From Patescibacteria group bacterium (GTDB taxonomy: Bacteria > Patescibacteriota > Microgenomatia > UBA1400 > PJMF01), in contig JBDTME010000001.1 in assembly GCA_039934415.1 (NCBI GenBank), positions 442,461-506,460 on the forward strand: 64,000 bases of DNA, written 5' to 3'. The notes beneath the pieces are model-generated. The model was not told the origin of the DNA, ran no database searches, and saw nothing but the letters and a program-made list of their open reading frames with translations. Position 1 is the stretch's first letter. Each line of letters starts with the position of its first letter. A program made the translations under genes and the position numbers. This document shows positions 9,518-56,508 of this stretch, one piece after another.

Positions 9518-9592
9518 TCCCCGATAGCTCAGCGGTAGAGCAGGAAGCTGTTAACTTCAAGGTCCTAGGTTCGAATCCTAGTCGGGGAGCCA
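9518..9592 (+). tRNA. tRNA-Asn (anticodon GTT)
   Basis: Hand-folded cloverleaf. 7-bp acceptor stem TCCCCGA/TCGGGGA, D-arm GCTC-AGCGGTA-GAGC and anticodon loop CTGTTAA. T-arm is CTAGG-TTCGAAT-CCTAG, with discriminator G and an encoded CCA. Confidence 0.9.
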
Positions 9593-11128
9593 CGTATTGC
9601 TTATCCGAACCAAATCACGCTGGATAAGCGCATCGAAGCCGTCAGTATAGACGACAGAATCAATCCTTTTCCCTTTAATTTGGATCTTTTTTACCAGCCA
9701 ATTTAGGAATTGTTTTCGCTCAGGTTTGGTGAAAGCTTTATAAAGTTCTGGCAGTCTCTTTAAAAAGGCGATGATCTTTTCAATCTTCTGTTCATCCATG
9801 TTAGCCGATGGCTTTGTGAGTTTCTCAATTTGTGATTCAACCGTTGCTAGCTCTTGCCTCAGTGGTGAGTATTTTTTCTCAATGCGTTCTTTGGGGATGA
9901 TCTCACCAATGAGCTGATCCTCTAAGGCATCCATTTTCTTTTCAATGACTTCTTTTCGTTTTTTGAGTGTCTTTATCTGACTTGGAATATCAGTACCTTG
10001 GTTTTGCATGAGTGTTTGAAGCTCTTTACGTAAGCCATCATAGAATCGTTCACTAAACTTTAATCCTTTAATCCAAGCTTCAAGTTGATCGTGTACTTCA
10101 TCCATGACCGCATAAGGCTCATTACAACTTTTGCCATAGCTCTTTTGACCAAGACAGCGATAGTAGGTGTTAATTTGGCCAGTATCTTTGATGTGTTGTT
10201 CACCAGACATCAAGGTGCCACATGTATTGCAGTAAACTAAGCCAGCTAAGAACCAGTTATGTTTGCGAGAGCGGTCAGCTCCTTTATTGTGTTTTTGCAT
10301 AATGTCCTTTGATTTTTGTATATCTTCCATTGTCACGATGCAAGCGTGTAAGCCGTCATACATTTTACCGTCGTAAAGAACCTTTCCTGCATAACGGACA
10401 TCAGTCAACATGCGATGGATGGCATTAGCTCTGACTCGGTTGCCTTTAGGTGTGCGAAAGCCTTCAGCAAATAACTCATCTTCAAGCCGATAGATGGAGT
10501 AGCCGTCAGTGTGATAGCGGCGAAAGACTTCTTTGACAAAGTAGTCTCGCTCTTTATCAATAGCCCAAGGCTCACCTTTTTTGTATGAATTAAGATACCC
10601 AACTATAGCAGGACCAGGCTGAATGCCTTTCTCAGCAATTGAGACCATAGTTCGCTTAGTTTTTTGCCCAGTGATCTCCCGTTGGAGTTGGTTGGCTCCT
10701 GCCATGATCAGGTCTACAAAGTTGCCCACTGGATCATCCCCAAAATTTGGTTGTTCGGTTGCTATGAGTAAGACGTTATGTTTTTTGAGAAATGATTTAA
10801 CGGCCAAGTGATCCTGAGCATTTCGAGCGAAGCGGTCAGTCTCTTCCAGTAAGACGGCATGGACTTCTGGATCATCTTCACAACGCTCCAACATGCGGTT
10901 GAATTCAGGTCTTCCAGAAGTAGTCCCACCGCTTTTACCACCGTCTTTATAGACATCGATGATATTCCAGCTTCGCTCCCTAGCAAATTTAGTGAGGCGT
11001 TCAATCTGATCCTCAAATGAATGACCTTCTTTGACTTGGCGATCAGTACTCACACGAGCATAGAGCAAACAATTCTTAACTTTGGAGTAATCGTCGGTTG
11101 TATTTAGTTGTTGATACATATTTACCAC
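9578..11128 (-). CDS. large serine recombinase (resolvase/invertase N-domain + recombinase domain + zinc ribbon)
   Basis: LLYARVSTDRQ catalytic-Ser motif, a long recombinase domain and a C-proximal CNTCG...YYRC zinc ribbon. Its 3' end overlaps the tRNA-Asn 3' end by 15 nt. Confidence 0.9.
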   Translation of the reverse strand: MVNMYQQLNTTDDYSKVKNCLLYARVSTDRQVKEGHSFEDQIERLTKFARERSWNIIDVYKDGGKSGGTTSGRPEFNRMLERCEDDPEVHAVLLEETDRFARNAQDHLAVKSFLKKHNVLLIATEQPNFGDDPVGNFVDLIMAGANQLQREITGQKTKRTMVSIAEKGIQPGPAIVGYLNSYKKGEPWAIDKERDYFVKEVFRRYHTDGYSIYRLEDELFAEGFRTPKGNRVRANAIHRMLTDVRYAGKVLYDGKMYDGLHACIVTMEDIQKSKDIMQKHNKGADRSRKHNWFLAGLVYCNTCGTLMSGEQHIKDTGQINTYYRCLGQKSYGKSCNEPYAVMDEVHDQLEAWIKGLKFSERFYDGLRKELQTLMQNQGTDIPSQIKTLKKRKEVIEKKMDALEDQLIGEIIPKERIEKKYSPLRQELATVESQIEKLTKPSANMDEQKIEKIIAFLKRLPELYKAFTKPERKQFLNWLVKKIQIKGKRIDSVVYTDGFDALIQRDLVRISNTWLPD

Positions 11129-11164
11129 TTTTGTTTATTATTCTCGATAATATTTCCATATATG

Positions 11165-12451
11165 TCAACTTGGGAAATGAAGCGGAGTATGGTGACTTTC
11201 CTTTTTAGCTCGGCTGACCATTATCTCTATGATGTTATTGGATTCTTCTTTGATACTCACTGTTTTCTCACTGATGTCTAGGGGTTTAGGGTACTCAAAA
11301 GTAATTTTTTCTTGCGGGATTCGATGAAAGTATTTCAACAACTCATCAAAAATCTCAGTGTGACATTGTTCTAACCATTTGTAGGCTCGCTGCCCCTTAG
11401 TTCCAAACCAGAGCTCTCTACTAACTATTTCTTGACCGTCAAAGTAGCATGCCTCAACTCTCTTAGTTGCGTCTATGTAAGCCTCCATTTTCAAACGCAT
11501 AGTGGCTACTTGTCTGAATATATCCTCCATCTGCTCTTTTAAATCAGAATGAAGTGTGAGGGTAATGTCAAAATAATCTTTACTATGAGTTGCCTTGATA
11601 AAGGCAAAACTTTCGAAGATTTGCTTCATACTCTCTTTAGTACGTTCGGCGGTTGCACCTGCGTAAGGTGGTGAGTAATCTATGGCAACTTCATTTTCGC
11701 AGAAGTGAACAAGTTCTTTTTTGTTATCAATAAAGTCATTAAAATTTCTATCTAACTTTTCTTTACACTCGTACCAGCTAAGAGCTGTTACTCCTGGTTT
11801 TCCAATATCTCGTTTAGTGCAATAGTATCCTTGGCCAGTTGTTACAGTTTTTCCTTCTAGAACATTGTTATCAATCCACTGGTTGATTTTTAGTTGTTGT
11901 TTTGCAACTTCCTCAGCCCATTCCTTTTTGAGGTAAAAGTCTCCATCTCTTAAAGCCATTTGCACTTCATCTACGTGCCAGTCTGTAAGTTCACCTTTTG
12001 ATTTGAAGTAATGCAACGCCTCTTGCTCTGCTAAGCATTCAATAGTGAAGACAGCTGAAAACTCTTCAGTACGAAGTTTTTGATAGAGTTCTTCAAATCC
12101 TTGTTCAGTTAGGACTTTGGGTAACCATTTGAGTTGAAGCAATAATACGTCCGCTGCAATACTGAACCTAAGTAGCCGATAAATCGCATCTAATTTTGAT
12201 GCAAAGTACTGTAATTGGAGTGTCATAGTTTGTAAGTCACCATCCATCATGGCTTGTAGCGTGTAAATTAAGCTTGCGTAAAAGTTATATTCATTGATTT
12301 GGGCATTCGTAATGCCAGCCTTTACTGCTTCAATTTCGTGGGTGTAATTTCTGTCCTCAAGCTGTTCTTTGACAGAGTATTCAGCCACTAACTTTGCCCG
12401 TTCTTTGGCGGTGAGTACTTTGCTGATATTGTTGAGAGAAAAGTTTTTCAT
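11165..12451 (-). CDS. hypothetical protein (element-encoded)
   Basis: 428-aa ORF with no recognisable motif. 4-nt overlap with the downstream 12448..12831 ORF. Confidence 0.5.
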   Translation of the reverse strand: MKNFSLNNISKVLTAKERAKLVAEYSVKEQLEDRNYTHEIEAVKAGITNAQINEYNFYASLIYTLQAMMDGDLQTMTLQLQYFASKLDAIYRLLRFSIAADVLLLQLKWLPKVLTEQGFEELYQKLRTEEFSAVFTIECLAEQEALHYFKSKGELTDWHVDEVQMALRDGDFYLKKEWAEEVAKQQLKINQWIDNNVLEGKTVTTGQGYYCTKRDIGKPGVTALSWYECKEKLDRNFNDFIDNKKELVHFCENEVAIDYSPPYAGATAERTKESMKQIFESFAFIKATHSKDYFDITLTLHSDLKEQMEDIFRQVATMRLKMEAYIDATKRVEACYFDGQEIVSRELWFGTKGQRAYKWLEQCHTEIFDELLKYFHRIPQEKITFEYPKPLDISEKTVSIKEESNNIIEIMVSRAKKESHHTPLHFPS

Positions 12452-12831
12452 TTTGACCTCTTCTCAATTGTTCTGCGTTCGAAAATGACTCGCTCAATTG
12501 TTTCTAAGCGCTTACTTAGGTCAGCAGCCTCAATAGCTTTGAGTAAATGACCAGTCAAGTAACCAACGGTGTTGGCTATATTTGGAGGAATACTGCCATC
12601 TCTCACGCCGTTGATTGTTTGTTCAAGTAAGTCGATAGCATTATCGGGATCTCTCAATTGCAAAGGATCAAGGCTAATCAGTTCTTTTTTTGAAGAGTTT
12701 TTGCCACCTTCGGTTACTGCCGCAGCATGTTGCTCACGAGTGGCTGGATTGTGGGTAAAGCAGAACTCAGCATTCTTCATAGCATTAGCTTGGCATTGCT
12801 GATCGTTAGCTTTGAGATAAGTACATTGCAT
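12448..12831 (-). CDS. hypothetical protein with Cys/His cluster (element-encoded)
   Basis: CQANAMKNAEFCFTHNP possible zinc-binding motif. 127 aa. Confidence 0.4.
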   Translation of the reverse strand: MQCTYLKANDQQCQANAMKNAEFCFTHNPATREQHAAAVTEGGKNSSKKELISLDPLQLRDPDNAIDLLEQTINGVRDGSIPPNIANTVGYLTGHLLKAIEAADLSKRLETIERVIFERRTIEKRSK

Positions 12832-12880
12832 AGTTTTTCTCCTGATTTGTTAGTTACGCTTATGGGTGGAGGGGTGAAAA

Positions 12881-15226
12881 TTAGAACAGCGTCTGACGCA
12901 CCATTTCCTCCATATTTTCTTCATTTTTGTTGCCAATGCTGCCTATGTTGCCATCGGTTGAAGCTGTTGTAGTGGCTGATGGTTCTGGTTTAGAACCGTT
13001 GGTAGCTTGTTTGCTAATCGTGATGTACGTTCCCGCCAACTCTCGGTTCTTTGTGACATCCAGACCGTAAGCCATCAAATTAGGACGCACGTCCTTAATC
13101 TTTCTCCAAAGCCAGTTAGGGGATTTCGGGAAGCCTTTCTTGATTTTGAGTTTGTCGGCTTGAGCTTCCAATACATCAAATAGCTCGGAGCTTTTACCGA
13201 TCCAGTCACTCGTTTGGGTAGACATAAACTCAATCAAGGTTTGGGCGACGGCTGATGACTCAACAGCTTCTTCGTTTTGTTGGCGAACGTTCTGATTGAA
13301 GGCTCCAAGTAAGTCTTCTTCGGTAAATCCGAAGTGCATGGCAGCTGCGGTGGCATATTTGAAGTAGTCAGCCATTCTTGGTTTGGTGTGGAGTTTAAGA
13401 GTAGGAGCGAGTTTGAGCGTCGTTGCCACAGCATCAAACAATGATCCTAGTAGTAGAGGCTTGAGTTCTTCAAAATCATGCCAAAGGAACTTTTCTTCCT
13501 CACGTTGTGAGTCAGGAATTCTTTCCAAAGGAACGATAATGCTACGATCTAAGAGATCTGGGCGGGTGGCTACTTGGTTGATGCCACAAATACCAGCCAC
13601 ACGCTTGTAGGCATACAGTACGTCCTCATCATCAGTAAAAAGTTGGCGTTTGGTGAAGCCATCACCAGTGATCAGACGACAGAGGGCATCAGATAGGCTT
13701 GGGGAAATATCAGACAAGTTATCGAGAAAAAGTGCGTAGTGGTGACTTGCGAACTGAACGAGTTCACGAATGGAGTCAGGTGGTGTTAGAAGAGCAACCT
13801 GACTGGGGTCAATTAACTCTCTTAGTAACCTGAGAAGTGTTGATTTGGCTGAACCTTGATCGCCATGAAGAATGAGCATGGCTCGGGGAATATCAGGGAT
13901 GAGACTGGCCACTAAGAACGTCAAGACGAGCAGTTTATGTTCATCCGATTTGATATTCATAAACTGGGTGATTTCACGGAGATTGCCACCTCTTTTGGGT
14001 AAGACCTGGGCTTGCTGATGAGAAAAGCGTCTAAAGTAAACAGGAGCTTCTACTTCAACACTCCAACCTTCGGCAGTGATCTTAACAATATGCGTGTTAT
14101 CACCCATGTCATAGTAAATAGCTTTGCCTTTTCGCCCTACTCGGTTGAAAACCTCTATGGCTGGTCGATCAAAGGTAGCAATACCTTGCAGAGTTTTAAT
14201 CACAGCGCTGACTGCTTCTGAGCCAGGCGGTTTACCTTCTTGATCCCAATACATTTTGAATAGTAGTTGCTTAGTGGAGTCTGAATCGATTTTGTACGAT
14301 AAGAACGGCGTATGAGGTAAGGTCAGAACAGGTTCTTTAAACTGATTAGTGAAGAGTTTAATGGATGAAGATAAAACCATACCAACAAGTATTTGTGCTT
14401 GGCTTGGACGTTCGGAGCCACCTTGTGGACTGTTTACTGCCTTCTGTGAAATAGAGTTATAGACAGCTTCAATTTCTGAGCGAGGTAATGGAGGTTTGTT
14501 AAGCTGGTTCCAGGCTAAAAGTAAAGGCAAAGCAACTCTTTGCCACTCATCCTGAGGTAAGTATTTGAGGAGAAAGCCAACTACTTTGGCAGCTGAGTCA
14601 TTTCGTTTTGATTCACCGACCCCTTCAAAAATATTTTCTTCTGATTTGACTGTGGCACTCAGTTTGTCTTTGGTGGGTGGCTGCTGTAGCTGCTCGATGA
14701 GACCTGTTGGTAATTCAGCAAAAGAGATTTCGGTAGGTGACTCGAGCCAATAGTATTGATTTCCGCTGGGATGCTTTGAGGGAGGCAAGATGGCATATCC
14801 GCCTTCACCTCTAAAATCAGTTTTCTCTATGAAACTCGTAGCATTAGGAATCTCAAATTCAGGCGGTCTAAAGAAGTAATGGTGTCCACCTGAGCCTGTC
14901 TGTGAATGTGGCGTTTGGGGAAGTGTTTTAGTGTCAAATTTTGAGCCTTGGTCGAGATCTAAAACAACCACACCAGAAATCTTGCCTGTCACTAAAGCCA
15001 AGCCAGTTAGGCTTTTATGAGCTGACCATTTTTCAACTTCTTCGAGCGTAGGCTTCCTGTCTTGGAATTCTTTCCACTTAATTAGTGGCTTCTTCTCTGA
15101 ACCAATGGGGATGATTGACCAACCAAGTTCTAGATAGGTTTTGCCAAGCTCTAGCCATTCTTGTTGGGTTGATGGTGTTTTATTTGATATAGTACTCATA
15201 CATCTGTGGATAGAGGGCAAGTTCAA
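12881..15226 (-). CDS. bifunctional primase-polymerase (Prim-Pol) / P-loop NTPase replication protein (phage/plasmid P4-type)
   Basis: N-terminal WSIIPIG...KWKEF...GLALVTGKISGVVVLDLD (Prim-Pol catalytic DxD region). Central Walker A LILHGDQGSAKSTLLRLL (D5/DUF3987-like helicase domain). Length 781 aa. Confidence 0.8.
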   Translation of the reverse strand: MNLPSIHRCMSTISNKTPSTQQEWLELGKTYLELGWSIIPIGSEKKPLIKWKEFQDRKPTLEEVEKWSAHKSLTGLALVTGKISGVVVLDLDQGSKFDTKTLPQTPHSQTGSGGHHYFFRPPEFEIPNATSFIEKTDFRGEGGYAILPPSKHPSGNQYYWLESPTEISFAELPTGLIEQLQQPPTKDKLSATVKSEENIFEGVGESKRNDSAAKVVGFLLKYLPQDEWQRVALPLLLAWNQLNKPPLPRSEIEAVYNSISQKAVNSPQGGSERPSQAQILVGMVLSSSIKLFTNQFKEPVLTLPHTPFLSYKIDSDSTKQLLFKMYWDQEGKPPGSEAVSAVIKTLQGIATFDRPAIEVFNRVGRKGKAIYYDMGDNTHIVKITAEGWSVEVEAPVYFRRFSHQQAQVLPKRGGNLREITQFMNIKSDEHKLLVLTFLVASLIPDIPRAMLILHGDQGSAKSTLLRLLRELIDPSQVALLTPPDSIRELVQFASHHYALFLDNLSDISPSLSDALCRLITGDGFTKRQLFTDDEDVLYAYKRVAGICGINQVATRPDLLDRSIIVPLERIPDSQREEEKFLWHDFEELKPLLLGSLFDAVATTLKLAPTLKLHTKPRMADYFKYATAAAMHFGFTEEDLLGAFNQNVRQQNEEAVESSAVAQTLIEFMSTQTSDWIGKSSELFDVLEAQADKLKIKKGFPKSPNWLWRKIKDVRPNLMAYGLDVTKNRELAGTYITISKQATNGSKPEPSATTTASTDGNIGSIGNKNEENMEEMVRQTLF

Positions 15227-15250
15227 GACTCACCCTCTATCTCTTTCCTT

Positions 15251-15634
15251 TTATTTCGACGCTGGCATTACTTCACTGATAATCTGCCATCCTTCGGTAT
15301 CACCAGGTTTGTTCTTAACTAAGATCTGGCAAGCTTTACCTACCAGATCATTGAAACTAATCTCTTGTTCAGTTTCAGGTTGAGTTCCAAGTAGAGCGGT
15401 GACGATATCGAACAGCTTGGAGTTCTTTTTGCCTTTCCTCAGAGTAAGTTTTGCTATAGTTGAGCGTTCCGTTCCTTTATTATCACCATCAGTGATCTCA
15501 AACTTTAGCTTCAAGAATGTGCCATACTCGCCTTCGCCTTTATCTATCTCGGTGAGTTTGGCTTTGTAAACTCCTACTGGAATCGGTTCTGGTATGCTTG
15601 ATTCTTGAACTGTTAATATGATGTTTGCTGACAT
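15251..15634 (-). CDS. hypothetical protein (element-encoded)
   Basis: 127-aa ORF immediately downstream of the primase gene. No motif. Confidence 0.4.
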   Translation of the reverse strand: MSANIILTVQESSIPEPIPVGVYKAKLTEIDKGEGEYGTFLKLKFEITDGDNKGTERSTIAKLTLRKGKKNSKLFDIVTALLGTQPETEQEISFNDLVGKACQILVKNKPGDTEGWQIISEVMPASK

Positions 15635-15684
15635 AATTTTTTCCTTTAATAATTTGTTTTTAAATTGGGTTCACTACTTTTTCT

Positions 15685-15972
15685 TCACATATTTCCTCCT
15701 TCCTCTGGCATCAATAACTCAAGAGCTTTTTGAGAAATGGCTTCTTCAATCTCTTGACCAACCTCATAGTTGATTGGGTAGAAAATGGGTATTTCTGTAC
15801 CGTTATTGAGTTTTTTTGTGGGATAGACACAACGGAAGCCGTTGCCATCTCTGCGAGTAAAGACAGCTATATTGCCTACATAAAAACTGTGGTCGATCAC
15901 AAAGTTGGCAAAGAAGGTAAGGCCATTACTCGTGCGAATAGGAAGTAACTCGATCTCACTGATGGTTTTCAT
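15685..15972 (-). CDS. hypothetical protein
   Basis: 95-aa ORF overlapping the next ORF by 17 nt. Confidence 0.35.
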   Translation of the reverse strand: MKTISEIELLPIRTSNGLTFFANFVIDHSFYVGNIAVFTRRDGNGFRCVYPTKKLNNGTEIPIFYPINYEVGQEIEEAISQKALELLMPEEGGNM

Positions 15973-16165
15973 AGGCTTGTGCCTCCTTATCTTGTTTTTC
16001 TAATCGGTCGATTACTTGCAAAAGGAGTTCAGCCATTGAATGAAAAGAGCTCGCAACGAGCTTGTCCCGCTTTTCTTCAAGCTTAGGTTTGAGGGAAGTG
16101 ATGGGTTGTAGACTAGATTTTTCTACGTTTTCTCCAAATGACATGAAAGTATTTGACCATCTCAA
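15956..16165 (-). CDS. hypothetical small protein
   Basis: The ORF track start is TTG at 16163-16165. The first ATG would be at 16142-16144. Confidence 0.3.
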   Translation of the reverse strand: MRWSNTFMSFGENVEKSSLQPITSLKPKLEEKRDKLVASSFHSMAELLLQVIDRLEKQDKEAQAYENHQ

Positions 16166-16243
16166 TAGAGTATTGAGGTCAATACCCAGTTAGGGGCAAT
16201 TTTCAGAGGAAGGCAAACAAAAAAGGCCTCAATAGGTATTGAG
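16161..16243. promoter_or_regulatory. two copies of a 7-N2/3-7 palindrome CTCAATA-N-TATTGAG (operator candidate)
   Basis: ctcaatagagtattgag at 16161-16177 and ctcaataggtattgag at 16228-16243. Located in the 5' region of the 15956..16165 minus-strand gene. Confidence 0.4.
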
Positions 16244-16269
16244 ACCTAACAGAAAGATGAAAGTGAGAT

Positions 16270-17208
16270 TTAATTATCTTCGATTATGGGAGTAAGAAGT
16301 ATTCTATACGCACCAGGCTGTGCATCCCTTGATTCAATTGAAATGTAATCTTCAGCAGGCTTGCCTTTTATTTTTTCATCTCGAATCTGAGAAAGAATCT
16401 GTCTTACTTCGTCTGATGTTGAATTTGTAAGTGTAGCGAGTCTTTTTACTTCGACCCAAGCATCTTTAAATAGTGTAAGTCTCTTGAAGACCACACACCT
16501 CTTATTTTCAGCTGAGGAAAATACAAGAGTTATTCCATCAGTGATTTGAAAAGTTTTGCCGTCCTTTCTCCAACCGATCGATGCTCGCCAATTACCCACT
16601 TCTGATTGCATTGCATTGTTGTTAATTTTGGCGACTGAGCTTGCTAAAGCTATAACAGCTTCCTGATATTGTTGCTCCCTGGCGTTTTTCTCATCGATAT
16701 ATGACCAATCAATTTCTTCTAAAAAGCTAGATATGCGGTCTGGCTCTCTGTATGACATTGCGGAAGGCGGAGGTAAGTAGAAGGTTTCTTTGAGTTCGGG
16801 AAGTAACAATGGGAGTTTATTTACGCTTACTATTACATCAGCTAGTTTTCGAAGTGTTTGCTGAGCCATCTCAACCATTTGACGGAGTGGTTCCCAAAAT
16901 GACGTAGTTATTTCATCGATTACTCTAAGAAGCGGGCTTTCGATACGGACAACGGTGGATATTCCCATCGCTAGTTCAAGGTAGACAGGCTTAAATTGAG
17001 TAGCTGCAACAAGGGCTTCATTCCTAAAAGTGAGAACGGATTGAAGTGACTCAAACAACCTAGTTGTTGGGTTTGCTATTTCAAGTAAAGGGCTTAAATT
17101 AGGAACAGCATTAACAAAACCATCTGAGAACCGAACCATTTTGTCATTGATTTCCTTGGCTTGCTCATCGGTTAAATACTCTATTTTCTTTGCAGATAAT
17201 TCTGGCAT
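16270..17208 (-). CDS. hypothetical protein (element-encoded)
   Basis: 312-aa ORF. No motif. Confidence 0.45.
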   Translation of the reverse strand: MPELSAKKIEYLTDEQAKEINDKMVRFSDGFVNAVPNLSPLLEIANPTTRLFESLQSVLTFRNEALVAATQFKPVYLELAMGISTVVRIESPLLRVIDEITTSFWEPLRQMVEMAQQTLRKLADVIVSVNKLPLLLPELKETFYLPPPSAMSYREPDRISSFLEEIDWSYIDEKNAREQQYQEAVIALASSVAKINNNAMQSEVGNWRASIGWRKDGKTFQITDGITLVFSSAENKRCVVFKRLTLFKDAWVEVKRLATLTNSTSDEVRQILSQIRDEKIKGKPAEDYISIESRDAQPGAYRILLTPIIEDN

Positions 17209-17309
17209 AGTCGCTACTTTTTTGATACATTTTCATGACACGAGTGAATTTTAGATTACCAGTAAAAAGCACGAATGTGAAGTACTGGGGATATTGATAT
17301 ACTAATAAT

Positions 17310-17939
17310 ATGACAGTAAATGAAATCTACACTAAATATAGAACTCCAAATAATTTACAACAACACATGCTTCGAGTCGCAGCCTTATGCACTGTAATAG
17401 TTTCCAGTTGGAAAGGTGAACCGATTTCAAAAGAAGACATCGTTAACACTCTTCTTTTTCATGATATTGCTAAACCAGTTACATTTGATATTGCTAACCA
17501 GGCTAGGTTTGTTAGCTCGCCAGAGGAACTAGTTCGGCTTGAGCAAGATATCAAGTACTTAGTTGACAACTTTGGTTCGGAAGAGCATCAAGCAGCCCTT
17601 AAAATTTTTCAAGACATAGGGTTGAACAAAAACTGTCAGAGATTAATTAATAATTTGGAATGGCACAATACGGATGATCTGATGCGAGTTAACGATATCG
17701 AGTCATTACTGACGATTTATTGTGATATGAGGATTGGTCCTAAAGGAGTGCTTTTAATTGAGCAGAGATTGAGCGAGCTTAACGCTCGTAATCCAATAGA
17801 AGACTTTGAAAAAAGGTTAAAATCAGCCAAAGATCTCGAGAATCTCATTATAGGCAAAGTTCCAATTAAATTGGACGAAATTAAAGAGGAGCAAATATCC
17901 CCAATTGCTGAAATGCTATCCCAAAAGCAATTCAACTAG
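17310..17939 (+). CDS. HD domain protein (putative metal-dependent phosphohydrolase)
   Basis: HMLRVAAL ... LLFHDIAKP gives the H...HD...K arrangement of HD-superfamily metal ligands. Confidence 0.55.
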   Translation: MTVNEIYTKYRTPNNLQQHMLRVAALCTVIVSSWKGEPISKEDIVNTLLFHDIAKPVTFDIANQARFVSSPEELVRLEQDIKYLVDNFGSEEHQAALKIFQDIGLNKNCQRLINNLEWHNTDDLMRVNDIESLLTIYCDMRIGPKGVLLIEQRLSELNARNPIEDFEKRLKSAKDLENLIIGKVPIKLDEIKEEQISPIAEMLSQKQFN

Positions 17940-18211
17940 AACTCAAATAGCTCACGAACCTTAGCCTTTAGGCCTTTGGCAATCTTAATCAGATAACGAA
18001 CAGAAGTGTTGACGTAACCATTCTCAATCTTAGCTAGATAGGAGACGTTAATGTCAGCTTCATCTGCTAAATCCTCTTGAGTCAGCTTGCGGTCATTGCG
18101 AAGCTTCTTGATTGTCAGTCCTAGCTGCACACGTTCTTTTTGATATTCGTTCTTTTGTTGGTATCTACTTGGCATCTCCCCATTATTTGGGGACTTGCCA
18201 TAAACTACCAT
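17936..18211 (-). CDS. XRE-family helix-turn-helix transcriptional regulator
   Basis: LTIKKLRNDRKLTQEDLADEADINVSYLAKIENG is a typical Cro/CI HTH. Confidence 0.75.
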   Translation of the reverse strand: MVVYGKSPNNGEMPSRYQQKNEYQKERVQLGLTIKKLRNDRKLTQEDLADEADINVSYLAKIENGYVNTSVRYLIKIAKGLKAKVRELFEF

Positions 18212-18276
18212 TCCATATATGGAAACATTGGTATATAATCACAAGAACCAGACGTAGAACTCAGAAAGGAAAATGT

Positions 18277-18822
18277 ATGAAAAAAGTAGCAATGATTGGT
18301 GGAGGCATATTTTTGCTTCTCATTATTATTGGAGCCGCCTCAGGTGGTAGTAAAACTGAAAAAGTTGGCTCGACGAGCGACACTTCCCAAGTAGCCACAG
18401 CACCTTCTTCTCAACCTCAACAAGACACAAAATATAAAGTAGGCGATCAAGTGAAAATGGGTGATGTGATTTTGACAGTCAACAAAATGGAAAAATCACA
18501 AGGTGGGCAATTCACTAAGCCGAGTGAAGGCAATGAGTGGATTAACCTCAACATGACCATTGAAAACACTGGGTCAAAGCAAGAGTACGTCACTACCTTG
18601 GGTCAGATGTACGTTGTTGATAAAGACGGTAATCAATATCAGATAGCTGTTACCAATAAGGCAATGGAAAACATCAACAACTCTCTTGATGGTGCAGTAG
18701 TCGCCAAAGCCAAGAAGACTGGGTGGGTTGGTTTTGAAGTACCTAAAACAGCTACTGGCTTAACCTTCCGCTACAACGCTAGCTTCTGGAATGACAAAGC
18801 CATCCTAGTTGAATTGCAATAA
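18277..18822 (+). CDS. DUF4352 domain lipoprotein/secreted protein
   Basis: Signal/TM MKKVAMIGGGIFLLLIIIGAASG preceded by an RBS aggaaa. YKVGDQVKMGDVILTVNKMEKS...EGNEWINLNMTIENTGSKQEY pattern of DUF4352. Start moved to the internal ATG at 18277. Confidence 0.6.
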   Translation: MKKVAMIGGGIFLLLIIIGAASGGSKTEKVGSTSDTSQVATAPSSQPQQDTKYKVGDQVKMGDVILTVNKMEKSQGGQFTKPSEGNEWINLNMTIENTGSKQEYVTTLGQMYVVDKDGNQYQIAVTNKAMENINNSLDGAVVAKAKKTGWVGFEVPKTATGLTFRYNASFWNDKAILVELQ

Positions 18823-18989
18823 ACTCATGCTGCCAGTGCTGCAATGCTTACATGGCTAACTTAGCCTTGAATATGTAGGTAGTGTAGGCATTGGCAGCAT
18901 CATTACTTTCTCGATACGTTTCCGCTTTTTGTTTTGCTTACTTGAGTGTTAAAATTGCCATATAAGTAAAGTAGTGAAGACGTAGCATT

Positions 18990-19976
18990 ATGACCATTAA
19001 ACAGGCCACAGATTTATCGAAACAAATACTCCAAAAGCTTGGTTTTAGAGAAGAAGAATGTGATCTAATTTCCCAAAATCTCATAGAAGCTGAATTGGCT
19101 GAAAGAAAGACGCATGGTTTGATAAGGCTGCCAGCTATTGCTCGAAATGTAAAAAACGGGAGTATTAAGGTTACGCCAGAGGACATTGAAATTATTGCAG
19201 AGCATCCAGGCTCTTTGCATTTTGATGCTAAGCATAAACCAGGCTTCTACGTTCTTTATAAATCGCTAGAGATAGCTATTAAGAAAGCAAAAGTTTCTGG
19301 GATCGTGGCAGTAGCAATTAAAGATCTGGAGTATGCATCAGGCTACATTGGTGACTACGCTCGGCTAACAGCAGAACAAGATCTAATTTTTATTGGCTTC
19401 CATAATTCACCTGGTGGATTAGTTCCTCATGGGACAACAAAAGGCATTTGGGGTACAAATCCTATTACTATATCTGTACCCACCCAACAAATTCCAGTTA
19501 TTTTAGATATGGCTTCGTCTCAATCAACTTGGGGTGAGTTAATGGTTGCAAAAACTGAAGGTCGATCAATTAAAGAAGGTGTAGCAATTGATTCGGAGGG
19601 GAATGTAACTGTTGACCCTGCTAAAGCCATGGAAGGGGGTATTCTTCCCATAGCTGGTCATAAAGGTTCTGGTTTGGCATTTATAGTAGAACTTCTAAGT
19701 GGAGCGTTGAGTAACTCTAGAGTTGGAGGTGCTGTTGAGGGCGGCTGGGGTTCATTTTACATCTTGATTAACCCTGCTTTCTTTAGGGACCTGAGTGATT
19801 TTAAGAATGATGTCGAAGCAGCTATTCAAGAGTTAAAGTCTACACCTAAAGCAAAAGGCTTTAATGAGGTCTTCTTCCCAGGGGAGCAATCTTACTATAA
19901 GCGAAAAAGTAACCTCGAAAGAGATGAAATTGATATCAGTGAAAAACTAATGGCAGATTTGGAGGGGCTAAAATGA
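18990..19976 (+). CDS. Ldh2 family (malate/L-lactate/sulfolactate dehydrogenase-like) oxidoreductase
   Basis: ERKTHGLIRLP, GYIGDYA and IAGHKGSGLAFIVELLSG are conserved Ldh_2 family blocks. Confidence 0.8.
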   Translation: MTIKQATDLSKQILQKLGFREEECDLISQNLIEAELAERKTHGLIRLPAIARNVKNGSIKVTPEDIEIIAEHPGSLHFDAKHKPGFYVLYKSLEIAIKKAKVSGIVAVAIKDLEYASGYIGDYARLTAEQDLIFIGFHNSPGGLVPHGTTKGIWGTNPITISVPTQQIPVILDMASSQSTWGELMVAKTEGRSIKEGVAIDSEGNVTVDPAKAMEGGILPIAGHKGSGLAFIVELLSGALSNSRVGGAVEGGWGSFYILINPAFFRDLSDFKNDVEAAIQELKSTPKAKGFNEVFFPGEQSYYKRKSNLERDEIDISEKLMADLEGLK

Positions 19977-20845
19977 ATAACCAAAACTTGAAAGTAGGTA
20001 TTGTTGGCTTAGGAATTATGGGCAGAGGGATGGCTAATAACTTTATCAAGAAAGGTTTCACTCTTTTTATCTGGAACAGAACTCAGTCAGTTTGTGACGA
20101 ATTCAGTAAACAAGGTGCTGTTGTTTGCTCAACGCCTGCTGAAGTTGCTCAAAAAGCAGACGTTATATTTGAAATTACTGCCAATGACGAATCTTCAAAA
20201 GAGGTGTGGATGGGAGAAAAAGGTATTCTTGCTGGAGCTAGTACTGATAAAGTACTCATTGCTAGCGCAACTCTCTCTGTAGAGTGGGTGGATGAACTTG
20301 TTGCAAAATGCAAAAATCAAAAATTTACTTTCATGGACATTGCCCTAACTGGTGGACGAGTTGGAGCGGAAACAGGTAGCTTGACTGTATTATGTGGTGG
20401 AGATGAAGCAACACTTCAACAAATTGAACCAGTCTTACAAGCGGTAGCAAAAAAGATTTTCCACTTTGGACCAGCAGGTCATGGCATGAGATATAAACTG
20501 ATTCTCAACTTCCTGCAAGCTGTTCACATCATTGGATTTGGACAGGCGATGAAAATCGCTAAAGCCTATGACATGGACCTAAAGAAAGTTAGTGAAGCTT
20601 TAGTTGATAGACCAGGAGGAACAATCACTGGAATTGCCCAAAAAACTTACTTTGAAGAACCAAACCCCATAACCTTTTCCATTGAATGGATTTCTAAGGA
20701 CCTGACTTATGCTAAGAAATTAGCTAAAAATTTAGATGTCTGTTTACTTGATGGTGTATTGAGCGAGTATAAAAAGGCGATGGAAAAGGGCCATTCGAAG
20801 AGAGACTGGGCGTCAATCAATACTCTTATTGAGGAGCAGTTATGA
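19973..20845 (+). CDS. NAD(P)-dependent dehydrogenase, 3-hydroxyisobutyrate dehydrogenase (HIBADH)/GarR family
   Basis: N-terminal Rossmann VGIVGLGIMGRGMANN and the overall HIBADH layout. Overlaps the previous gene by 4 nt. Confidence 0.8.
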   Translation: MNNQNLKVGIVGLGIMGRGMANNFIKKGFTLFIWNRTQSVCDEFSKQGAVVCSTPAEVAQKADVIFEITANDESSKEVWMGEKGILAGASTDKVLIASATLSVEWVDELVAKCKNQKFTFMDIALTGGRVGAETGSLTVLCGGDEATLQQIEPVLQAVAKKIFHFGPAGHGMRYKLILNFLQAVHIIGFGQAMKIAKAYDMDLKKVSEALVDRPGGTITGIAQKTYFEEPNPITFSIEWISKDLTYAKKLAKNLDVCLLDGVLSEYKKAMEKGHSKRDWASINTLIEEQL

Positions 20846-21468
20846 CAGATAAATTTGCCTCAACCATTCAAACATACAACAAGTTTGCACCTCAGTTCAT
20901 TCAACACTTTGAAAAGAAGTTGGATACGACTGAACTGGATAAGTTCATAGAAGGAGTACCAAAAGGTGGTTATATTCTTGATGCTGGATGTGGATCAGCT
21001 AGAGATGCAGCGTACTTCATTAGTAAGGGCTATAAAGCACTGGGTATTGATCTCTCAGATGGGCTCCTGGGTGAAGCAAAGAAAATACACCCCGAAGTTC
21101 CAACTCAACAAATGAGCTTAACTGAAATCACACTGCCTGACGCAAAATTTGACGGAGTTTGGTGTAAAGCAGCTTTGCTTCATATTGATCGAAATGACAT
21201 TCCTAAAGTACTGAAAGATTTTTATCGGATCCTCAAGCCTAACGGAGCATTATTTATTCAGACAAAAGAGGGTGAAGGTGAAGGCACTCAGCCAGTTCCT
21301 TTTGATGAAACGATGACAAGAATGTTTACCTTTTTCACCGTAGAAGAAATGGAGAAACTGGTAAAGGATGCAGGCTTTGAACTATTAGGTAGTTATGACT
21401 TCAATGGTAAGAATCGAGGTACTAACTCTCGAGATCAGGAGTGGGTAGTTATCTTTGCAAAAAAGTAA
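20842..21468 (+). CDS. class I SAM-dependent methyltransferase
   Basis: Motif I ILDAGCGSARDAAYF and motif post-I ALGIDLS. 4-nt overlap with the upstream gene. Confidence 0.8.
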   Translation: MTDKFASTIQTYNKFAPQFIQHFEKKLDTTELDKFIEGVPKGGYILDAGCGSARDAAYFISKGYKALGIDLSDGLLGEAKKIHPEVPTQQMSLTEITLPDAKFDGVWCKAALLHIDRNDIPKVLKDFYRILKPNGALFIQTKEGEGEGTQPVPFDETMTRMFTFFTVEEMEKLVKDAGFELLGSYDFNGKNRGTNSRDQEWVVIFAKK

Positions 21469-21474
21469 AAACAT

Positions 21475-22230
21475 ATGAAATTTAAAGCTCTCGTTTTTGA
21501 TCTAGATGGCACCGCCATTCCCAAAAGGCCAGATGGTATGCCTTCTCAAGCAGTGATTGACGCTGTTGCTAAAGCTAAGAAAGTCTGCCACGTTTCGATT
21601 GCCACAGGTAGACCATACTCTTTATGCGAAGATATCCTAGATGCATTGGATATTGATGATTTATGTATTGTGAATGGTGGTACCCACTTATATTCAAGAA
21701 AAACAAATGAATATGTCTGGAAACAAGAGATAGATCAGTTAGTGCTTCAAGAGCTATTCTTTAAACTTAAAGAATTTCGCCAGTATGATGTCGCTGATGA
21801 GAAGAGGCTCGATAGAGTTCCAATTGAAGAATATCGAACTGATGAGGCTATTGCTTTGGCTTGTATTTTTTCTACCACAAAACAGGATGCTCAAAAGATC
21901 ATTTCGGTTGTCAAGGGATTTAAATCCGTCACGGCTCATGCCGTTTCGTCGTGGAAAGACGGGACATTTGATATTCACATCAGCCATGAACTAGCGACAA
22001 AGAAACACGCCTTGCAATCCTTGCTCTCTAGACTAAATGTTGATCTAGACCAAATAATGGTGGCTGGTGACGGAGGGAATGATCTCCCTCTCTTTGAACT
22101 CGCAGGTTGGAAAGTGGCGATGGGAAATGGTGCTGATGAGTTAAAAGAACAAGCTGATTGGATTGCCCCTCATGTCGATGATGATGGCCTAGCGGTTGCT
22201 ATCAATAAGTTTATTTTGAAGAAAGACTAA
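21475..22230 (+). CDS. HAD-IIB (Cof-type) hydrolase
   Basis: N-terminal DLDGT nucleophile motif and C-terminal GDGGNDLPLFELAGWKVAMGNG. Confidence 0.8.
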   Translation: MKFKALVFDLDGTAIPKRPDGMPSQAVIDAVAKAKKVCHVSIATGRPYSLCEDILDALDIDDLCIVNGGTHLYSRKTNEYVWKQEIDQLVLQELFFKLKEFRQYDVADEKRLDRVPIEEYRTDEAIALACIFSTTKQDAQKIISVVKGFKSVTAHAVSSWKDGTFDIHISHELATKKHALQSLLSRLNVDLDQIMVAGDGGNDLPLFELAGWKVAMGNGADELKEQADWIAPHVDDDGLAVAINKFILKKD

Positions 22231-22231
22231 T

Positions 22232-22708
22232 ATGAATTACTCGTCATTCCTTGACTCATTTTTCGAACAGATACACAAAGCTGGTCTTGATATTGCTAGA
22301 CTTCCTCTAGATCACGTTGCTTATCAAGCCTCATCATCAGAAGACTATGAGAGGCTACTACCTGAATTTTCAGCCTTAGGTGAGCTAATGAGTGAAGAGA
22401 TTATCGGGGAAAGGCGTGTCGCAGTTTTCAACTTGAGTGAGCCTATCCAATACAAAGAGTATTCGATCCCTGCTCTGGAACTCATTGAACCTCGAAGAGG
22501 CCAACAATGTGAGTCGTCTTTTCAACACGCAGAATTTGTTACAAGCAAACCTTTCGAGGAGTATATGCAGCAATATCCAAACATTAAATGGGATACAAGC
22601 TCGATGCACAGGGATGAGTTTTCCCACTTAAAGCTTAACTTTGAGAATGGACTAACACTTAAATTTCTACTTAAGCCTATCCTTGAACTTGTGGGTATTA
22701 AAAAATAA
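22232..22708 (+). CDS. YecM-like VOC superfamily protein
   Basis: DHVAYQASSSEDYERLLPEFSALGELMSEEIIGERRVAVFNLSEPIQY is colinear with E. coli YecM DHISLRCHQNATAERWRRGFEQCGELLSENMINGRPICLFKLHEPVQV. Confidence 0.65.
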   Translation: MNYSSFLDSFFEQIHKAGLDIARLPLDHVAYQASSSEDYERLLPEFSALGELMSEEIIGERRVAVFNLSEPIQYKEYSIPALELIEPRRGQQCESSFQHAEFVTSKPFEEYMQQYPNIKWDTSSMHRDEFSHLKLNFENGLTLKFLLKPILELVGIKK

Positions 22709-22722
22709 AGTACGGATTAACT

Positions 22723-23295
22723 ATGACAACTTATTTACTCCATGGTGGAGGAACTTCAAAAGATCTGGCAGGTAACGACCTCTTTTTTTCTCAGTTTACT
22801 AAATTGGTCGATAAACCTGAGGTAAAGGTTCTCTTGTGTTACTGGTCAAGGAATCAGCACGAGTGGCAAACATTGATAGAAAGAGATCAAAGCAGGATTC
22901 TCAAAAATTCAGATAAAAAAGTATCTTTCCAGGTCGCTGAAAACAGTAAGGATCTATTTGAGAAGCCTAGGGATTCTGATGTGCTTTATGTGGCTGGTGG
23001 TGATGCTGAACTTTTAGAACCATATTACAGTGAGCTGAGCAATCTAAGGAGTTCACTGAATGGAAAAATCTATGCAGGCAGCTCTATGGGAGCATTTTTA
23101 GCTTCTAACCAGTATGTATTGCCCTTTGATAGCCAGGACGATGAGTCGGTTCATGCTGGGGTGGGTTTATTACCAATTCAAGTACTCTGTCATTGGAATG
23201 TAGAAAAGAAGAAAGATTTCAAACTCAATCTTTTGTCTAACTCAAAGCCAATTATTACTTTGAACGAAGGTGAGTTTGTAGAAATATACCAATAA
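22723..23295 (+). CDS. peptidase S51 (dipeptidase E/cyanophycinase-like) family protein
   Basis: VLYVAGGDAELL and GSSMGAF (Ser nucleophile context) are typical of S51. Its stop overlaps the next start (TAATG). Confidence 0.6.
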   Translation: MTTYLLHGGGTSKDLAGNDLFFSQFTKLVDKPEVKVLLCYWSRNQHEWQTLIERDQSRILKNSDKKVSFQVAENSKDLFEKPRDSDVLYVAGGDAELLEPYYSELSNLRSSLNGKIYAGSSMGAFLASNQYVLPFDSQDDESVHAGVGLLPIQVLCHWNVEKKKDFKLNLLSNSKPIITLNEGEFVEIYQ

Positions 23296-24404
23296 TGGAT
23301 GCTGGAACGATCGCAAGTATTGCTATAGAAATTATAAAGTTTGTGTTTAAACCACTCACTTTATTTTTGAAATGGGTTATTGATAAGCTCCCATTTGAGA
23401 TCAGGTGGAAAAGAATTAAATTGGGAATCATTGAGTCTAGGTGGGGCACACATACATGGGACAGAGGAAAGCAAGGTGATGAACCTGTTATTTTTGTTCA
23501 CACACGCTGGAGCTTTACTAATACTTTACCTTACAATATTACAGCTTTAAATGCCTTTCTCATTAGACCGCAGAAAGTGAAAGGCCATGCACTAATTAAG
23601 GATCCCGAAGCCAATATGTATGGTTCGTATGTAATTCCAAGTGGATATACTACGGAGGTCCATGCTGATTTCGTGATAGATGATAATAATGTAAAGTCAG
23701 AATACGAAATTTTAAAGGCAGATATAAATTTTCAGGACTCAATTGGGCGTTTACATAAAGTAAGAAATGTAGATATTTATCCGATAAAAGTAAATGCAGT
23801 AAAACAAGAGAAACTGACTGTTGAAGACTCATCAAAAATCACAAACGAAACTGAAAGAAAGTTGGTATCTGTTCTCAAAAACGAGATCCAACAATATAAA
23901 GTAAGAGGTCGTAGAGAAGGTGGACTAGGTACGGTTGATTGGCCAAGAGGAACTATTGAATGGACTCAAGCAGGTAGTACGATTCAATTTCTCTTTCAGA
24001 CCTCATCAGAAGAGCATGTGCGATCCGAACATGCGACTGCTCTACTTAACTTATATAAAAATGCAAACAAGGCCCAGAAAAAAGTTTTCATTCAAGCATT
24101 GCTTGATCGTATTGATCGGAAAAGTGAGTACAGAGACGTAGCATACTTAATTATCTTTGTTCTTTTCTTATGTGGTTTTCTCAAAGACGGACTAATAATT
24201 GCAAAAAAAGATCTACTAAACGACAAGGCCCACGGTTTCAGTGACATGCTAAGACTTATAGATTTGTTGTTGGCTTTTAGATATCAAGAATTTGATGAAA
24301 AAACATTAAACGAAATTGAGAAATTAGTTTTTTCAGTTCAAGAACACCCTTTCAGGATAAAAGAAAGAATAAATGCAATAAGAGTGAAAGGGCTGGTGAG
24401 CTGA
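23295..24404 (+). CDS. hypothetical protein, N-terminal TM anchor (no recognisable domain)
   Basis: 369 aa. Hydrophobic N-terminus IASIAIEIIKFVF and a second TM near aa 290. Translationally coupled to the upstream gene (TAATG) and to the downstream gene (1-nt gap). Confidence 0.5.
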   Translation: MDAGTIASIAIEIIKFVFKPLTLFLKWVIDKLPFEIRWKRIKLGIIESRWGTHTWDRGKQGDEPVIFVHTRWSFTNTLPYNITALNAFLIRPQKVKGHALIKDPEANMYGSYVIPSGYTTEVHADFVIDDNNVKSEYEILKADINFQDSIGRLHKVRNVDIYPIKVNAVKQEKLTVEDSSKITNETERKLVSVLKNEIQQYKVRGRREGGLGTVDWPRGTIEWTQAGSTIQFLFQTSSEEHVRSEHATALLNLYKNANKAQKKVFIQALLDRIDRKSEYRDVAYLIIFVLFLCGFLKDGLIIAKKDLLNDKAHGFSDMLRLIDLLLAFRYQEFDEKTLNEIEKLVFSVQEHPFRIKERINAIRVKGLVS

Positions 24405-24405
24405 T

Positions 24406-25356
24406 ATGGGGCACCTAATAAAAATAACTCTCAAGACAACTAAGTCGAATATTAGTATTACTGAGGGAAAAATTGGAAAGTGGTTATTTTCTTGGTCGAA
24501 TAATCAGGTCGAAGCATTTGCAGAAGCTGAATACAATGCGGGTTCTATTTCAGATCCTTTCGATCTTGTGAGAAAAACTACAAAGTTGAATTTGGCGCTT
24601 CTGATTGACTGTTTAACTATGATTGTTAATCAAGAAGTGAATACATCAATAGTTATTTCCACTGATCCAAAAATACTTGTCTATCAAAAAACTAATTCAA
24701 AAAGAGTCACATCAATACATGAAGCAAGAACTCTAACAAGGTCTATTAGACCAATATGTAATGCGAGCTCACTTGGGGAAGAGGTTCCGAAGAGAATCGA
24801 TGAGGGGGTTACCATAAACCTTTCTGAAGATCGTATAAGAATATTACGCTATTTGTTGGATTTTTTTAGCAAGAAAAAATCGTACAAAAATATTCATTTA
24901 AAATTAGTAAATTATTGGAGGAAAGGCGTTGATTTAGATCAACTCATGCTAGTTGATGAAAGCTACTTAGCATTCTTTAAAATTATTGAATACTACATCA
25001 ATAGGTCGAATGTAAAAGAGTCTGATATTCCTTCAAAGTTTCGTGAGCCAAAATCATTGCAAGATGCTTACAAGTTTTCACTTGGAACAGGTTTATCTTC
25101 TATGAAAGATGATCAACTCCAAATGATATCTGACTTTGTTCACATTCGGAACAACTGGGATATTGCCCACGTTAAAATGGGAAGCTTACCTGATGATAAG
25201 TTCGGTGGCCTATATTACTCTCATATGGATGAGGGCTGGGAATATCATAGCCACATTTGTCAGATTTCACGCTGGGTAATCTTAAAAGAGCTAGGTATAA
25301 AAGACCTGATGCTCGAGAATAATGGAGGCTTATTAGAACTATCTATTACTGAGTAA
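24406..25356 (+). CDS. hypothetical protein (no recognisable domain)
   Basis: 316 aa, last gene of the co-directional overlapping operon. No motif identified. Confidence 0.5.
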   Translation: MGHLIKITLKTTKSNISITEGKIGKWLFSWSNNQVEAFAEAEYNAGSISDPFDLVRKTTKLNLALLIDCLTMIVNQEVNTSIVISTDPKILVYQKTNSKRVTSIHEARTLTRSIRPICNASSLGEEVPKRIDEGVTINLSEDRIRILRYLLDFFSKKKSYKNIHLKLVNYWRKGVDLDQLMLVDESYLAFFKIIEYYINRSNVKESDIPSKFREPKSLQDAYKFSLGTGLSSMKDDQLQMISDFVHIRNNWDIAHVKMGSLPDDKFGGLYYSHMDEGWEYHSHICQISRWVILKELGIKDLMLENNGGLLELSITE

Positions 25357-25421
25357 TCTTTCGGATAAAGTCCCATACGGGGAGCCGTCTAAAAAGGTTC
25401 AAAACTTAAAACCAAAAAATA

Positions 25422-56411: not shown

Positions 56412-56508
56412 TACAAATAAAGACCCACTGCGATGGGATGTACCAGAGTATACTCTAGCGAGTTAATTTTGCAAGAGTTTAAAAGAAAAACACCGAAATG
56501 TGCTTACA

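Follow-up and report, generated by a model that had tools for sequence, protein, structure and literature searches.

We found that positions 9589-25383 of a 64,000-nt stretch of DNA from a Patescibacteria group bacterium (hereafter the window; contig JBDTME010000001.1, positions 442,461 to 506,460) very probably form an integrated mobile element of this Patescibacteria/candidate phyla radiation (CPR) bacterium, with 15,795 bp between the inferred crossovers, attL at 9561-9614 and attR at 25356-25409. In this reading, a large serine recombinase (LSR) encoded at one end recombined attP with attB, which placed the element at the very 3' end of a tRNA-Asn(GTT) gene. Directly supporting this call are the protein domains, the geometry of the att sites, the conservation of the family, the targeting of tRNA genes and the variability of the cargo. 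The features involved are:

9518-9592, plus strand: tRNA-Asn(GTT), intact, the integration target (ARAGORN, Rfam and sequence)
9561-9614, plus strand: attL, with B arm 9561-9586, inferred crossover GA 9587-9588 and P' arm 9589-9614
9578-11128, minus strand: large serine recombinase (Pfam, PHROG, homologue lengths and tail analysis)
18990-25356, plus strand: cargo operon of eight genes (Pfam and NCBIfam)
25356-25409, plus strand: attR, with P arm 25356-25381, inferred crossover GA 25382-25383 and B' arm 25384-25409 (host DNA)

The only tRNA gene that ARAGORN found in the window is a plus-strand tRNA-Asn(GTT) (9518-9592), and Rfam RF00005 agreed (66.6 bits). An earlier sequence-only reading of this DNA had described a tRNA-Asn gene with a convergent large serine recombinase overlapping its 3' end; ARAGORN, Rfam and Pfam together confirmed both genes, and the LSR stop codon (TAG, 9578-9580) falls within the T-stem, on its 3' strand, which gives an overlap of 15 nt with the tRNA. 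The LSR has a Resolvase domain (PF00239, 5.6e-27, residues 21-168) with the catalytic-domain motif YARVSTDRQ and its nucleophilic serine, a Recombinase domain (PF07508, 2.6e-8), a Zn_ribbon_recom domain (PF13408, 4.1e-8) and weak coiled-coil-type Pfam matches over residues 351-456; in PHROGs it matches phrog_95 integrase (5e-87). Since the homologues are 513 aa long, translation probably starts at the ATG at 11119, giving 513 aa. Three marks of a large serine integrase were found, namely these domains, the symmetry of the half-sites and the 5-bp motif shift described below.

The 9-mer CGGGGAGCC occurs exactly twice in the window (9583-9591 and 25378-25386), with a chance expectation of 0.08 for this 9-mer, and a search for further copies, which had been proposed as a check, returned none beyond the two. 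However, when every 9-mer in the final 35 nt of the tRNA is allowed, a shuffled window gives 7.3 repeats on average, so the 9-mer alone is not significant. We found that an inverted 9-mer, absent from the sequence-only reading, accompanies it: TTATCCGAA lies at 9601-9609, 9 nt after CGGGGAGCC at the tRNA end, and TTCGGATAA lies at 25360-25368, 9 nt before CGGGGAGCC at the far site (span 25360-25386). The two are exact reverse complements at exactly mirrored spacing, and TTCGGATAA was found nowhere else in the 64 kb. When a direct and an inverted 9-mer were required together at mirrored spacing (dinucleotide-preserving shuffles, spacing tolerance of 1 nt), 1/1000 shuffles was positive, and the real window flagged this site alone. 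This strict test replaced a looser one (k = 8, any spacing), in which 89/300 shuffles were positive; the att pair was not among the top families in a generic repeat search of 9-30 kb. The second copy does lie, as had been said, in the short gap (65 nt) that separates the plus-strand operon, which ends at 25356, from a convergent VOC gene (25422-25790), and the cargo operon ends 4 nt before the TTCGGATAA of the P arm. The gene content reported between the sites was likewise all present, with PrimPol/PriCT/P-loop, XRE and HD genes and then an operon that includes an Ldh_2-family gene.

The layout of the two ends would be that of serine-integrase junctions, with attL as B-core-P', attR as P-core-B', and P and P' as inverted repeats. 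The B arm is the T-arm plus the acceptor 3' strand of the tRNA, with TTCGAA at 9570-9575, and the P' arm carries TTATCCGAA, sits within the LSR coding sequence and is conserved in all relatives. We aligned the junctions of the window and of contigs with related elements (labelled L051, L052 and so on) on their common GAGCC and found that in four tRNA junctions (window, L051, L052 and L053) the start of TTCGAA is 17 nt ahead of GAGCC and that TTCGGA, TTCTGA or TTCGAA (TTCGRA-type) starts 22 nt before GAGCC in three non-tRNA junctions (the window attR, L061 and L116). For the A118/LI integrase, Rutherford et al. (PMC3783163) showed that attB and attP differ in how far the motif bound by the zinc-ribbon domain (ZD) lies from the centre: it is 5 bp closer in attB, with the recombinase-domain part unshifted. 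This 5-bp difference underlies directionality. The inner B and P arms of the window are alike in register (pattern xAxxCGG, 13/26 positions identical). Hence, from the spacing of 22 vs 17 nt and the in-register inner similarity, 25356-25381 appears to be a P-type half-site and the T-arm a B-type half-site, with the T-loop sequence TTCGAA as what would serve as the ZD motif of the host half-site. The earlier proposal that the tRNA end is an attL and that the 9-bp repeat marks the other end is thus supported, in that the 25.36-kb site is built like an LSR P half-site with the core next to it.

GAGCC(A) is common to all junctions, and the base 5' of GAGCC varies (G in tRNAs, C in L116 and T in L117), which disfavours a crossover that includes this base. 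The rebuilt attB has an inner dyad, TAGTCGG-GGAG-CCGTCTA, with its axis at mid-GA (TAGTCGG at 9579-9585 and CCGTCTA at 25385-25391), and the outer P/P' dyad is centred on G. From the axis of the rebuilt attB, the GAGCC core of all junctions and the variable base 5' of the core, we infer that the central dinucleotide would be the non-palindromic GA of ...GGGGAGCC. The sequence-only reading had worried that a 2-bp crossover would make a 9-bp repeat coincidental; the crossover is still put at 2 bp, and the worry loses its force because the wider identity is explained otherwise. Specifically, the element must re-supply the last tRNA bases (GAGCC/A), and the inner P arm is similar to the tRNA arm, as it should be when a single protein binds both half-sites.

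The predicted attP junction reads ...TTTCGGATAAAGTCCCATACGGGGAGCCACGTATTGCTTATCCGAAC... (longer form ATCTTTCGGATAAAGTCCCATACGGGGAGCCACGTATTGCTTATCCGAACCAAA), and the predicted attB junction reads ...GGTTCGAATCCTAGTCGGGGAGCCGTCTAAAAAGGTTC... (longer form GGTCCTAGGTTCGAATCCTAGTCGGGGAGCCGTCTAAAAAGGTTCAAAACTTAA). The tRNA-Asn bases from about 9589 on would be element-derived, the gene being restored by element-supplied GCCA. The rebuilt empty site reads ...GGGGAGCCG, in which the host tRNA-Asn would not encode the last A of CCA; the integrated element supplies GCCA at 9589-9592, compared with host 25384-25386, and so gives an encoded CCA end.

The LSR homologues returned by protein searches range in identity from 97% to about 59%, followed by a gap to 40% and below, and the other recombinase clusters in the search were only 22-31% identical to the LSR. 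The relatives' contigs L051, L052 and L053-56 are from Patescibacteria metagenome-assembled genomes, one labelled Woesebacteria, and the common gene order is XRE, an unassigned gene, (SpoVG), 127 aa, PrimPol, 127 aa, about 428 aa and LSR. We found that the LSR ends within the 3' end of tRNA-Asn in 4/4 contexts (window, L051, L052 and L053-56), and the C-terminal tails of many further LSR homologues read like T-loop. The last LSR residues are tRNA-encoded and vary with the acceptor stem of the host (TWLPD, TWLLG and TWLPRVDSNHEP, each followed by the stop). Because the tails follow each host's acceptor stem, the tRNA through the acceptor 3' strand is taken to be host DNA, with exchange at the very end of the gene. 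In L051 an LSR 97% identical to that of the window sits in a different host neighbourhood, in L061 an element 91-97% identical in DNA is flanked by different genes, and L052 and L053 are in other hosts. Hence, the element appears to have moved recently, since near-identical LSRs and elements occur in differing contexts.

In L052 and L053, a group I intron interrupts the anticodon loop of the tRNA-Asn (L052:11576-11769 and L053:11577-11836, minus strand; Rfam RF00028, 56.5 and 77.8 bits, respectively). ARAGORN made no tRNA call in these contigs because of this intron; the 3' integrase target is unaffected.

The P arms also bear on the LSR protein. The P' arm is LSR coding sequence (codons VRISNTW, with GTT CGG ATA = VRI), and the P arm would encode the final codons of the excised-form LSR. 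In the excised form, the LSR open reading frame (ORF) would run on across attP and become 9 aa longer, ending ...WLPVWDFIRKITQ / ...TWLPVWDFIRKITQ at its stop. Joining 25386 to 9592, we predicted 522 aa for this form (525 aa counted from the GTG at 11128) vs 513 aa for the integrated form; integration would swap the tail PVWDFIRKITQ for two tRNA-encoded residues, PD. Homologues with ORFs across P-type junctions (P0003, P0006, P0027, P0028, P0031 and L061) end WL-x-[VLR]-[MIW]-[DNE]-x-[IF]-R-[TK], and the predicted excised-form tail of the window, WLPVWDFIRK, matches this pattern. Since the conserved [IF]-R is the TTCGRA motif on the other strand, DNA and protein constraint are inseparable in the tail.

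The interval between the conserved terminal block of the backbone and the P arm would be a variable cargo slot, filled here by an operon for small-molecule metabolism. Backbone DNA homology takes in the XRE and DUF4352 genes and stops at 18978 (L051) and 18972 (L061), just past an invariant block, and the cargo after this block differs in every element and is always transcribed away from the backbone. We found SAVED and a protein without assignment in L051, Lactamase_B/MOSC/NUDIX/GNAT in L052, SMODS in L053, guanylate kinase, Ham1 and a methyltransferase in L062, and an 8.5-kb run of metabolic-type genes in a Joint Genome Institute contig (P0096, XRE homologue). The cargo genes of the window encode an Ldh_2-family dehydrogenase, a beta-hydroxyacid dehydrogenase, an S-adenosylmethionine methyltransferase, a Cof-type HAD phosphatase, a YecM/VOC-like protein, an S51-like protein and two proteins without assignment; their NCBIfam matches are family-level only, all below the curated cut-offs. 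The order in L116 is the same as in the window: directly after a P-type arm come cargo genes on the minus strand (HerA/DUF87, NurA and DruA), a small gene and then XRE. The sequence-only reading had put the size of the element at 9-16 kb. Since variable cargo in relatives follows the conserved backbone at exactly the same position, the 15.8-kb end of this range is favoured; the end near 9 kb is disfavoured, with no att-like site near 18.98 kb.

Elements of this family also occur in tandem. L116 holds a window-like element (LSR 84% identical) joined head to tail, via P'-GAGCC-P, to a distant cousin that has its own XRE, PrimPol and LSR (25% identical), and P-type junctions follow the LSR in L116:4640-4700, L061:8870-8930 and L117:11520-11570. 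The simplest reading is that tandem arrays arise when a newcomer inserts beside the tRNA, which would make the resident attL its target; dimers or free circles are alternatives for P-type junctions at LSR ends. The non-tRNA junction of L061 had at first been read as a free attP, which became one of several possible readings once L116 showed that tandem arrays give such junctions too. Directly past the P-type junction of L061 lies a MamI-type restriction-modification pair (N6_N4_Mtase and RE_MamI, L061:8998-10929), presumably the terminal cargo of a neighbouring element.

Several observations weigh against the 15.8-kb element, or against its mobility. We found no recognisable recombination directionality factor in the element in the Pfam and PHROGs scans, and no relaxase, coupling protein or type IV secretion genes that would provide transfer functions (Pfam and PHROGs on backbone ORFs, Pfam and NCBIfam on cargo). 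Neither an empty attB nor a circular junction was retrieved from the species-genome collection or matching contigs: the closest genomes in that collection have only about 49% PurB identity, the sole exact-match contig (L115, 2 kb) has the same occupied arrangement, the search with a left-flank host protein otherwise returned the window's own genome, the same locus is present in Logan run SRR26386571, and exact-protein look-ups of the LSR (both start codons) and PurA gave no match. No far att site was seen in the 10-kb flanks of L051-L056, L062 and L117, searched with the core with mismatches, with TTATCCGAA with mismatches, by local alignment to the window attR and with the geometry pattern; the relatives' cargo is therefore taken to extend past these flanks. 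Consequently, the placing of cargo within the att sites draws on the window and on the order of P arm and then cargo in L116. In the att sites themselves, P and P' are symmetric in the outer 9-mers and not in the inner parts, and are 1 nt off-register about a 2-bp centre; the TTTGAA motif of the B' arm has a spacing between B-type and P-type. Finally, the GC content shows no step at 25.4 kb; over its last 2.5 kb the cargo (GC 0.34-0.37) is like the right flank.

Even so, the 15.8-kb reading is much the likeliest: the arms are mirrored, their P-type spacing recurs in independent junctions, and both the dyad of attB and the pattern of the tail point the same way. We consider it quite improbable that only the backbone (about 9589-18980, 9.4 kb) is mobile, with the Ldh_2 operon as host DNA and the 25.36-kb site a product of chance. 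Such an element would fit the end of DNA homology with L051, L061 and L052 at 18972-18978, the GC of the distal operon (like that of the right flank), the housekeeping-like character of the operon enzymes and the lack of a far att site in any relative. Against it, nothing like the core or P arm lies near 18.98 kb, and a GGCTC-N14-19-TYCGAA-like pattern occurs only twice in the window. Moreover, chance gave the mirrored 9+9 arrangement in 1/1000 shuffles, the P-type spacing at 25.36 kb matches two independent P-type junctions, and the predicted LSR tail fits the family pattern. Four relatives also have four unrelated outward gene sets after the same invariant block, which is unexpected for coincidental host flanks.

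We likewise give little credence to a fixed relic, that is, a domesticated or dead island in which LSR and tRNA overlap by a frozen accident. The backbone ORFs are all intact, LSRs with 97% identity sit in different genomic contexts with backbone DNA 85-94% identical, and the turnover of cargo among close relatives implies recent activity; these facts tell against a relic more than the missing evidence of excision, the lack of a recognised directionality factor and an integrated-form LSR without its native tail tell for one. Very improbable is a composite or decayed tandem, with 18.99-25.36 kb, or the DNA right of 25.38 kb, as an older like element without its integration module, so that the present att pair would span two histories: tandem arrays do exist in the LSR family (P'-GAGCC-P in L116; P-type junctions in L061 and L117) and the B' arm is like P' at 12/26 positions in register, but 19-25.4 kb holds no internal P'-core-P junction, second recombinase or second replication gene, the P arm has at 25360 an outer 9-mer that perfectly mirrors the P' arm of this LSR while the P arms of neighbouring elements differ (TTCTGAACG in L061 and TTCGAATCT in L116), and the inner B/B' dyad fits a true attB.

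The backbone of the 15.8-kb element has the following further features:

11165-12451, minus strand: conserved backbone gene, 428 aa, no Pfam family (same order in relatives)
12448-12831, minus strand: conserved backbone gene, 127 aa, no Pfam family (same order in relatives)
12881-15226, minus strand: Prim-Pol / PriCT-1 / P-loop replication protein, 781 aa (Pfam; PHROGs primase/polymerase)
15251-15634, minus strand: SSB-like protein, 127 aa (phrog_378 SSB, weak at 4e-7; synteny)
15685-15972, minus strand: SpoVG-like protein, 95 aa (Pfam SpoVG; synteny)
15956-16165, minus strand: small ORF (synteny)
16270-17208, minus strand: conserved protein without family, 312 aa (synteny)
17213-18290: regulatory region with a pair of 22-nt inverted repeats (17213-17234 and 18269-18290)
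17310-17939, plus strand: HD-domain gene (Pfam HD)
17936-18211, minus strand: XRE repressor gene (Pfam HTH_3)
18277-18822, plus strand: DUF4352 protein with an N-terminal hydrophobic anchor (Pfam DUF4352, 1.5e-20; phrog_806)
18827-18971, plus strand: conserved non-coding end of the backbone, with a hairpin (18827-18900) and the invariant block TAAAATTGCCATATAAGTAAAG (18950-18971)

The Prim-Pol replication protein is 65-97% identical in relatives, and the 428-aa and 127-aa genes (11165-12831) are candidates for a directionality factor or another accessory role. The two 22-nt inverted repeats are complementary at 21/22 positions, flank the HD and XRE genes at both promoter regions and are both kept in L061 and L062, with one copy overlapping the DUF4352 start codon; they are probably operators of the XRE repressor. 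The segment with the HD gene (17283-17936), convergent with XRE, is absent at the same spot in L061, L062 and L053, and by this comparison the HD gene is a window-specific insertion within the backbone. The position of the gene for the DUF4352 envelope protein matches that of the DUF4352/Ltp lipoprotein genes of relatives, which makes an exclusion function possible. The hairpin at 18827-18900 has a fold z of -4.4 and some compensatory changes (five elements), and the stretch is conserved in all elements compared; no sigma-70-type promoter was found in or around the invariant 22-nt block. The hairpin and block together are a possible origin, terminator/insulator or non-coding RNA.

With these genes, the backbone would make the element repressed, excisable and self-replicating, with putative circular replication and putative activity at the present day. 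Pfam and PHROGs scans of the backbone ORFs, and Pfam and NCBIfam scans of the cargo, returned no capsid, tail, terminase or lysis genes. In a phage collection (megablast), there was no near-identical match except the tRNA, and in IMG/VR we found no relative of the LSR and only distant relatives of the PrimPol. By its gene content, we would class the element as small, integrative and self-replicating, either an integrative plasmid or a satellite.

Two further observations concern the repressor and the surroundings of the target. Look-ups of XRE homologues led mostly to other element types (L057 and L059). At L057:10001-17351, a 77% identical XRE homologue heads a type IV secretion element that encodes TrbC, VirB4/TraG-like ATPases and an M23 peptidase and belongs to a Patescibacteria genome of 1.57 Mb. 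The repressor module is common to unrelated CPR mobile elements. Homologues of rpoD and dnaG lie at 55300-58200 of the window (rpoD at 72-74% DNA identity), about 46 kb from the tRNA-Asn, on its opposite side and on the opposite strand relative to the tRNA; in L051-L053 they are within a few kb of tRNA-Asn. This displacement, as read from gene order, indicates a putative rearrangement near the integration site.

The window LSR has the same order of Ser domain, recombinase domain and zinc ribbon with a coiled-coil insert as the phage large serine integrases A118/LI, Bxb1, phiC31 and SPbeta SprA. With the A118/LI type it shares att sites of about 50 bp and a ZD motif 5 bp closer in the host-type half-site (PMC3783163). 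It differs from all four in its tRNA 3'-end target, its use of the T-loop as ZD motif and an attP inside its ORF; its P/P' symmetry is limited to the outer motif, and its likeness to the named integrases is one of description, not of alignment. Islands of the Islander/TIGER type, formed by tyrosine integrases, show the same restoration of tRNA 3' ends, an integrase beside the tRNA, variable cargo and tandem arrays; their recombinase family is unrelated, however, and the ends of the window element share 9 bp vs the usual longer tRNA fragment. Integrative elements with a PrimPol/archaeo-eukaryotic primase and helicase are 10-20 kb long, use a tyrosine or serine recombinase and in many cases sit in tRNA genes (Kazlauskas et al. 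2018, PMC5862659). The window element is like these in its Prim-Pol + PriCT-1 + P-loop protein and differs in its Patescibacteria host.

Serine-recombinase mobilizable elements have been described as inserting within, and disrupting, genes (review, PMC5704250), and natural serine integrases were said in 2014 not to target tRNA genes (PMC4383910). An LSR that targets a tRNA gene is thus an unusual combination, this type of enzyme rarely doing so. A limited literature search found no description of this element family; large recent surveys may hold similar cases.

Vibrio cholerae PLE (phage-inducible chromosomal island-like element) is likewise a small island integrated by an LSR; it carries a replication module of its own and defence-related cargo, lacks structural genes and integrates in a repeat element, not a tRNA. 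Its likeness to the window element is a functional analogy, not based on homology. In SSV1-type archaeal integrases and in mycobacteriophage integration-dependent immunity, tyrosine recombinases alter the product of an attP-spanning gene upon integration, by splitting the gene or removing a degradation tag. In contrast, only a short tail would change in the window LSR, with the last 10 codons lost and two tRNA-encoded ones gained.

We think it unlikely, on present evidence, that this LSR belongs to a clade that takes the tRNA T-arm as host half-site, keeps attP in its own ORF and uses the tail swap as a sensor of the integration state; any function of the swap is putative. If true, the tRNA-encoded vs native tail (WL-x-V-W-D-x-I-R-K) could control the stability, directionality or expression of the LSR, and the swap would parallel, in a serine recombinase, integration-dependent immunity. 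It might also account for the way newcomers insert beside residents and build the tandem arrays of L116, L061 and L117.

Serine integrases are workhorses of genome engineering, with short sites and no need of host factors. The family described here does target tRNA genes and builds its host half-site on the nearly universal T-loop; both its attP and its attB, of 50 bp, can be specified. To our knowledge, the Patescibacteria/CPR bacteria, which have tiny genomes, have few described mobile elements and almost no genetic tools. Hence, a native integrating and self-replicating element with a defined cargo slot would be an obvious vector candidate for CPR bacteria. Moreover, a slot that holds defence genes in relatives and a metabolic operon here points to a horizontal supply of metabolism to genome-reduced symbionts.

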